Source: a virus
Taxonomy: Duplodnaviria > Heunggongvirae > Uroviricota > Caudoviricetes
Length of the DNA: 4,103 bases
Virus record (IMG/VR): IMGVR_UViG_2693429582_000015
Reading direction: 5' to 3' (one strand)
Part shown: positions 247 to 1,024 of the stretch, piece after piece
Layout of the letters: each line of letters opens with the position of its first letter
Position numbering within the stretch: the stretch's first letter is position 1
The notes under the pieces: generated by a model
What the model saw: the letters and a program-made list of their open reading frames with translations, nothing else
What the model was told of the DNA's origin: nothing
Databases searched by the model: none
Translations under genes and position numbers: made by a program

Positions 247-561
247 TTAGCATTTTTTTGACCGCGCGTTTCCGGACGTATTCTGTTCTCCTGTCCCTTT
301 ATATCGTCGGAATACCCGCCGCTCTTCAAATCCCATTCCCAACTCAGAATGTAGTCTGTTGACCGCTTGTTTTATTTCGGTCAGGTTCACCGGTGAAACC
401 GGAGTCCGGCGCGCCTTACGCAAACACTCTGCTCGTTTCTGTGCCGCCACTTTTCTTTTCTGGTCATCACTTAGCTGTACCATCACTTTTGCCCATCGTT
501 CAGCTGCTCTCCGGTACAGTCCTTTTTTCTCCAGACATTCTGCCAGGTGATCATGTAGCAT
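247..561 (-). CDS. Small regulator, PerC/Pch-family-like (104 aa); family assignment from motif recognition only
   Basis: ORF with ATG at 561..559 preceded by a strong SD (GGAGG, revcomp of 568-572, 6-nt spacer). Translation MLHDHLAECLEKKGLYRRAAERWAKVM... carries the LE.KGL(W/Y)RRAA.RW motif I associate with PerC of EPEC and the prophage-encoded Pch proteins of EHEC. Basic C-terminus. Followed by the terminator at 184-211. Confidence 0.7.
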   Translation of the reverse strand: MLHDHLAECLEKKGLYRRAAERWAKVMVQLSDDQKRKVAAQKRAECLRKARRTPVSPVNLTEIKQAVNRLHSELGMGFEERRVFRRYKGTGEQNTSGNARSKKC

Positions 562-1024
562 AAGTAACCTCCGTTTATCTACAGACTGCCATCCTGAATT
601 TACCGTCCTTAATAAGACAACAATAAAAAACTAATTATATAAAAACAATAAAAATAATATACAAAAAAACTAAACAACAAAGAAAAGCAAATCATATCTG
701 GCATTTTAATTGAAAGAGCAATTACCGAACAAAAGACGCTGACTATATACTCAAAACCAAACAACAATTCTGCCAATCAGGTATCATGGCAACACACGGA
801 ATTACCATGTTTTTGCCTTCTCTGCCCATACAATACGGGCATATACTTCATACTCTATTGTAATATTTCTATCCATGCGCCCCACTCCATTTACCTGTAA
901 ATAATATTCAAAATATTTATCACAGAAATCGTTTTTGGCCATGAACTGAGCACACTATAAAGTCCGGAACTGACTCTTTGTTAAATTACCTTAACGTTAC
1001 CAGTAACACCTTCGTAACAAAACA
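562..1024 (-). promoter_or_regulatory. AT-rich, A-tract-rich intergenic region upstream of the PerC-like gene (likely promoter / nucleoid-protein-bound region)
   Basis: About 460 bp with no credible ORF on either strand and visibly low GC (roughly 25-35% by eye, versus over 50% in the flanking lysis genes). Repeated A-tracts between 620 and 690. Perfect minus-strand TATAAT at 639..634, but no good -35 at 16-18 bp spacing. Confidence 0.35.

Follow-up and report, generated by a model that had tools for sequence, protein, structure and literature searches.

A pchB-type regulator gene and its AT-rich upstream region behind the lysis genes of a lambdoid prophage

In EHEC, Pch proteins act as master switches for attaching-and-effacing virulence, and because of this role, spotting a copy matters when the virulence potential of a strain is annotated. 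They bind the LEE1 (ler) promoter region and remodel an H-NS/StpA/Hha complex, which switches on ler and the type III secretion island (PMC4764244). Of the five Sakai homologues, PchB activates ler most strongly, and a ler::lacZ fusion gave 12,513 versus 1,577 Miller units with a PchB protein identical to the one described below (PMC5931665). Transcription of pchA and pchB depends on LrhA, on Lrp with butyrate, on LeuO, and on NtrC/sigma-S (PMC4456613, PMC13012123, PMC10714755); according to Honda 2009, as cited in PMC13012123, LrhA regulates the two genes differentially. Expression of pchA and pchB in lysogens has been documented (PMC4456613, PMC7279287), and a synthetic PpchA-pchA cassette works outside the phage (PMC7279287). 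The small RNA DicF has been reported to bind an 'anti-SD' sequence in pch and to open a translational block under low oxygen (PMC7769764, PMC7873438). In strain PA20, treatment with an SOS-inducing drug increased expression of pchC 8-fold and that of pchB more than 3-fold, although the change in pchB was not significant (P = 0.09); no increase was seen for pchA (PMC5931665).

Here we describe a pch locus on a stretch of 4,103 nucleotides of viral DNA (the window; IMG/VR record IMGVR_UViG_2693429582_000015), which, read on its minus strand, gives the late region of a lambdoid prophage. Its best whole-window matches are other O157, O26, O103 and O45 prophages. The minus-strand gene order begins with the end of a SASA-family esterase gene, DUF1378, DUF826, a class II holin and a lysozyme, and ends with a P22-type antirepressor, a 50-aa ORF, Rz/Rz1, a gap of 463 bp and pch. 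The features that frame pch are the following.

1..127, plus strand: right end of an IS629/IS1203-type element (IS3 family); the IS ends of VT2phi_272 and Sakai Sp4 match it at 100% identity
128..165, plus strand: 3' end of a ylcI/ynfO-family gene cut short by the IS, converging on pch
184..210, both strands: bidirectional intrinsic terminator hairpin, A5-GCGACU/GGUCGC-U5, common to pch (minus) and the convergent ylcI-like gene (plus)
247..561, minus strand: pch coding sequence, 104 aa, PerC family, identical to PchB ECs_2182
1025..1492, minus strand: Rz spanin gene, the last ~7 codons of which (1025..1047) belong to the pch module
1087..1272, minus strand: Rz1, embedded in Rz

Two other elements of the window were recorded in passing. 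The 50-aa ORF between the antirepressor gene and Rz (1500..1652, minus strand) is hydrophobic, is listed as hypothetical in RefSeq, and matches phrog_4906 (E 2e-32) and no Pfam family. Between the DUF1378 and esterase genes, on the opposite strand, lies an sRNA-like element (3847..3923, plus strand) that matches Rfam Esr41 weakly, though over the full length (29.5 bits, gathering threshold 102, E 0.01). A perfect TTGACA is found nearby at 3809..3814; a GC hairpin and T8 close the element. Prophage 'Pas' sRNAs (PasA/PasC) have been described in the esterase-holin gap (bioRxiv 10.64898/2026.05.13.724894).

The ORF at 247..561 encodes an ATG-initiated protein of 104 aa. A first-pass annotation, made from the letters alone, had placed it with PerC and the EHEC Pch proteins on the strength of a KGL(W/Y)RRAA.RW-type motif, which is indeed present at residues 12-23 (KKGLYRRAAERW). 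The two comparisons proposed at that stage, against the Pfam family and against EHEC PchA/B/C, both bear the assignment out. A profile search with Pfam PerC (PF06069) returned 148.8 bits (E 5.4e-44; gathering threshold 22.6 bits), with residues 1-89 covering positions 1-89 of the 90 in the profile. Residue for residue, the sequence is that of PchB (ECs_2182, prophage Sp11) from E. coli O157:H7 Sakai (100% identity), and in the three Sakai loci compared, PchA differs from it by L6V and PchC by V58M, one residue each and the same differences as described in PMC5931665. Its length of 104 aa and its deviation from Sakai PchA/B/C at no more than three known variable positions are those of group-1 Pch proteins, as is its location in a lambdoid prophage, directly after Rz/Rz1 and behind an upstream region of ~463-465 bp. 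The exact protein sequence occurs on at least 1000 contigs of a public collection, under the name 'PchABC family transcriptional regulator'; its identity to plasmid PerC proteins is 36-48%. A sequence search found no solved structure for Pch, there is no NCBIfam model for it, and a single-sequence AlphaFold2 model (mean pLDDT 50.5, pTM 0.31) was too poor for use. To judge by its sequence, the gene is the already known and well-studied pchB in a known place, and this copy changes nothing known about Pch proteins.

The borders of the surrounding unit can be read from homology breaks on either side. Similarity of the window's Rz to that of K-12 DLP12 and of the Stx2 phage VT2phi_272 ends at 1047, 22 nt before the Rz stop, and bor comes next after Rz in both of them. 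At the other end, the pch unit is common to prophages whose terminase modules are of two different kinds, and the ylcI start codon is the exact point at which their homology sets in. These borders suggest that the mobile unit consists of the Rz 3' end, the upstream region, pch, the terminator and ylcI, ~1.2 kb in all. They agree with the earlier proposal of a moron inserted downstream of Rz/Rz1, in the slot where lambda carries bor; pch is present or absent at this fixed slot and has its own terminator, as expected of a moron. By these limits of homology, the pch module is an accessory unit of lambdoid prophages, located after the lysis cassette and before the packaging genes. The upstream region was found in 673 of 5426 complete E. 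coli genomes, always at full length and with a median of 3 copies. A Pch relative occurs in one of 50,697 GenBank phage records, a 1.6-kb fragment, which points to pch as a feature of resident, often defective, prophages. In the window, the IS629-type end meets the ylcI gene 119 nt beyond the pch stop codon (junction ~127/128), and none of the complete E. coli genomes in the collection shows this exact junction. Next to Sakai pchA, ylcI likewise contains an IS629, at a site 43 bp further from pch.

The upstream region (562..1024) comprises 463 bp at 33.3% GC, with a 200-bp minimum of 29%, and is set against 50.8% GC for 1025..4103; the AT-rich region of ~460 bp noted earlier is thereby recovered in size and composition. 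The sharp contrast with the adjacent lysis genes that had been drawn for the locus holds for the intergenic region (33% versus 51%), but not for the pch coding sequence, which has 49.2% GC like the neighbour genes. Only the control region, and not the coding sequence, is compositionally foreign. Phased A-tracts had been claimed as well. Their density, 5.4 per 100 bp versus 1.7 in the remaining window, is indeed three times higher, and the 25 tracts are a modest excess over composition-matched shuffles (17.8 +/- 3.0, p about 0.016). The phasing, however, is weak over the whole upstream region (periodicity ~11.25 bp, p about 0.01, uncorrected) and absent from the most AT-rich proximal part (p 0.55). 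With 463 bp at 33% GC and a core at 22%, the region is an extended AT-rich tract, as would be expected of the horizontally acquired, H-NS-silenced promoter that the first-pass annotation proposed. The published 10-bp H-NS motif is not enriched in it (3 matches versus 3.9 expected), and we found no pch-specific H-NS data in PMC4764244 or its supplements. Searches for repeats and inverted repeats returned just short AT-rich repeats and palindromes of uncertain meaning, and Rfam at a permissive threshold gave no match in 1..1100.

Variation within the upstream region was followed in an alignment of 56 distinct copies out of 84 loci. The window carries the pchB allele: proximally it does not differ from Sakai pchB (100% identity), and distally it is 99.7% identical. 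Nucleotide diversity of the pch unit is below 0.03 over most of its length and reaches 0.08-0.21 in the core at 601..725. The parts of the region, and the elements within them, are as follows.

562..600, minus strand: conserved 39-nt leader with the Shine-Dalgarno sequence, nucleotide diversity 0.02-0.03
568..572, minus strand: Shine-Dalgarno sequence GGAGG, 6 nt before the pch ATG
601..725, minus strand: hypervariable, extremely AT-rich core of 125 bp, 22% GC here, with at least 5 allele clusters
634..639, minus strand: TATAAT hexamer, in the pchB-type allele only (20 of 84 loci)
726..1024, minus strand: conserved distal upstream part, 38% GC, diversity mostly below 0.03
802..942, minus strand: 46-aa ORF (phrog_2157), sometimes annotated as 'hypothetical protein'
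954..984, minus strand: sequence-level candidate promoter of all alleles, TTAACA (984..979), 19-bp spacer (suboptimal), TATAGT (959..954)

All core alleles lie between 22 and 30% GC: the AT extreme is kept, the sequence is not. The core contains repeated TTATTGTT-type motifs, and short direct repeats of the TTATTGTT and TTTTTTAT types were seen in it. In one locus, a 39-bp deletion between such repeats has removed the TATAAT segment, which suggests repeat-mediated slippage as a source of the hypervariability. The paralogues pchA, pchB and pchC differ almost only in this short AT-rich core of their control regions, and the core may connect each of them to different regulators or to different nucleoid-protein silencing. 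The distal part always co-occurs with the proximal part, with local diversity peaks of 0.046 at 1001-1025 and 0.071 at 876-900. Divergent homologues in E. albertii and Escherichia sp. MOD1, which stand in other contexts, keep a still recognisable leader of ~40 nt and an AT-rich segment and are without the distal region.

Taken as a whole, the locus is very probably a pchB-type copy of the group-1 pch genes known from LEE-positive E. coli, on a ~1.2-kb accessory module. In the lysogen, a weak promoter belonging to pch itself, dependent on activators and located at some point within the AT-rich upstream region, would drive its transcription, with the hypervariable core giving each paralogue its own regulatory input. 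On prophage induction, extra pch transcription would come from read-through of the Q-antiterminated late transcript. Activator dependence, which the first-pass annotation had suggested from the composition of the region, is documented in the literature for pchA and pchB, through the regulators named above (PMC4456613, PMC13012123, PMC10714755).

Several positions for the start of transcription, and several roles for the parts of the upstream region, can be weighed against each other. A promoter consensus scan of the window found no promoter, and there is no sigma-70-like site with at least 9 of 12 matches at a spacer of 16-18 bp. The perfect TATAAT at 639..634 without a -35 element had already been noticed in the first-pass annotation and is present as described; the best -35 at 15-19 bp is no better than 3/6. 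It could be the -10 of an activator-dependent pch promoter that has no -35, leaving a leader of ~66 nt. The hexamer lies in the AT-rich core, and an AT-rich segment directly 5' of pch is kept even in the E. albertii and MOD1 homologues, but TATAAT-like hexamers are expected by chance at 22% GC, and this one is missing from 64 of the 84 loci, including the pchA and pchC alleles. Since pchA has GCGTGG and pchC has CTGTGA at this position, TATAAT is not a shared pch promoter; both genes are expressed and functional according to the literature despite its absence, and the locus with the 39-bp deletion has lost the entire segment. We regard this assignment as possible, with the balance of the evidence tilting against it.

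A start further upstream, in the conserved distal region with the -10 at 959..954, would produce a leader of ~385 nt carrying regulatory information. TTAACA-19-TATAGT is the sole 10/12 match and is kept in all four compared alleles, the distal 300 bp are about as conserved as the pch coding sequence, and the predicted fold of the minus strand of 720..1024 is slightly more stable than those of shuffles (z -1.98; variation is too low for a covariation test). The 19-bp spacer is poor, however, and divergent homologues outside the Rz context retain the AT-rich proximal segment but not this region. The conservation may also be simply the result of one module having spread recently, and a distal start seems unlikely to us. 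Slightly less probable still is a bipartite arrangement in which both parts may matter, the core as an exchangeable rewiring cassette and the distal segment as a leader or cis-regulatory RNA. For its own part, the distal segment of ~300 bp, with its pseudo-ORF, may be no spacer but serve pch as a long leader or cis-regulatory RNA that has yet to be described.

It is improbable that the ORF at 942..802 is a second real gene encoding a small protein. The frame is open in 12 of 15 alleles, matches PHROG phrog_2157 over its full length (E 2e-37), and is annotated as a hypothetical protein in some GenBank records. Its variation, however, does not resemble that of a coding sequence: 4 variants are synonymous and 24 nonsynonymous (14% synonymous, with a random expectation of 18%), and the most variable codon position is the second. 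The corresponding numbers for pch are 13 synonymous and 9 nonsynonymous variants. Start and stop of the 46-aa ORF are lost in one locus, it has no Shine-Dalgarno sequence (0.1 kcal/mol), and neither Pfam nor NCBIfam has a family for it. It is missing from the intergenic ORFs listed as translated in the supplements of the Sakai ribosome-profiling study, although multi-copy regions may have been excluded there. Judged from these patterns, the 46-aa ORF upstream of pch is probably not a gene.

Returning to the reading of a pch copy with its own promoter in the AT-rich upstream region, we consider how its transcript would be translated. The GGAGG of pch had been called the strongest Shine-Dalgarno sequence in the window. 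It is strong, with a predicted anti-SD pairing of -10.2 kcal/mol, but among the 10 starts in the window it shares the first place with the holin gene (-10.3). The predicted helix that would cover it has two arms.

547..572, minus strand: translation-initiation region (Shine-Dalgarno sequence, AUG, codons 2-5), predicted 5' helix arm in MFE folds
462..486, minus strand: arm in the coding sequence (nt +76..+100, codons 26-34), candidate 'anti-SD' for DicF, from MFE folds

The two segments are predicted to pair with each other in MFE folds, and the G residues of the Shine-Dalgarno sequence have a predicted probability of ~0.1 of being unpaired once the transcript runs past 400. This predicted RBS-CDS helix matches the published translational block that is relieved by DicF; it is a thermodynamic prediction, without covariation support because the coding sequence is almost invariant. 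Translation would thus be held back by pairing of the initiation region with codons 26-34, and DicF is reported to relieve such a block under low oxygen. The best DicF duplex, predicted with the K-12 copy of DicF, spans 456..514 and overlaps the arm at 462..486, with a score not significantly above shuffles (p 0.07), and an Rfam search found no DicF next to dicB in Sp14.

The 3' end of the transcript would be set by the hairpin at 184..210, which, with its U-run, bears out the claim that pch has its own terminator. Located 37 nt past the pch stop, it has a GCGACU/GGUCGC stem lengthened by A5/U5 and followed by U-rich sequence, and it is invariant in 5 aligned loci. A simple terminator scanner did not flag it, plausibly because the maximal stem absorbs the U-run. 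The scan reported one terminator-like site in total, inside the IS end, and none on the minus strand between 562 and 1024.

The orientation of pch predicts extra expression on prophage induction. In Sp11 and Sp14, Q, tRNAs, holin, lysozyme, Rz, pch and terS are all on one strand. Because pch is co-oriented with S-R-Rz and no terminator was detected between Rz and pch, the late transcript is predicted to read through into pch, which fits the published rise of pchC and pchB, and not of pchA, after treatment with an SOS-inducing drug (PMC5931665). Read-through into pchB is inferred here from the orientation, the lack of a predicted terminator and the PA20 expression data. In Sakai Sp4 (32131..36376), the holin-lysozyme-Rz-pchA block is inverted relative to Q and the head genes and is flanked by IS629 and ISEc8; this inversion may explain why pchA alone is uninduced by SOS-inducing drugs. 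A pch gene that lacks a promoter and is expressed solely by being carried along on the late transcript, as its orientation and the lack of a predicted terminator after Rz might suggest, is highly improbable, since pchA and pchB are expressed in uninduced lysogens and respond to LrhA, Lrp with butyrate, and NtrC (PMC4456613, PMC13012123, PMC10714755), the synthetic PpchA-pchA cassette is active outside the phage (PMC7279287), and Sakai Sp4 pchA is functional despite being inverted relative to Q. The added value of the present analysis is modest and lies in the difference between allele cores, the prediction from orientation, and the 46-aa ORF as probably no gene.

The closest relative of the locus is pchB of Sakai prophage Sp11, to which it is identical in protein (100%) and in proximal upstream sequence (100%) and nearly so in the distal part (99.7%). 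It also has the same neighbours, namely Rz/Rz1, the small ORF, the P22-type antirepressor and lysozyme, and differs from the Sakai pchB locus by the IS629-type end adjoining the ylcI gene 119 nt past the pch stop. PerC of EPEC plasmids belongs to the same Pfam family, with 47% identity over 87 residues (E 1e-27), and a KG(L/F)YRRAA-RWA motif is common to the window's Pch and EPEC-type PerC. Both PerC and Pch activate the LEE1/ler promoter (PMC4764244). However, PerC has 89 aa, is plasmid-borne (EAF-type), and is encoded by the third gene of perABC, at the end of the operon, whereas pch stands alone in a prophage, behind an AT-rich upstream region of its own. EHEC has a strict requirement for Pch in LEE expression; in EPEC the requirement for PerC is only conditional (PMC4764244). 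Lambda bor and borD of DLP12 resemble pch in occupying the same slot between Rz and the packaging genes, and bor is, like pch, an accessory gene expressed in the lysogen and equipped with its own terminator. The two differ in that bor is oriented opposite to the late operon and encodes an outer-membrane lipoprotein, whereas pch is co-oriented with the late genes and encodes a regulator.
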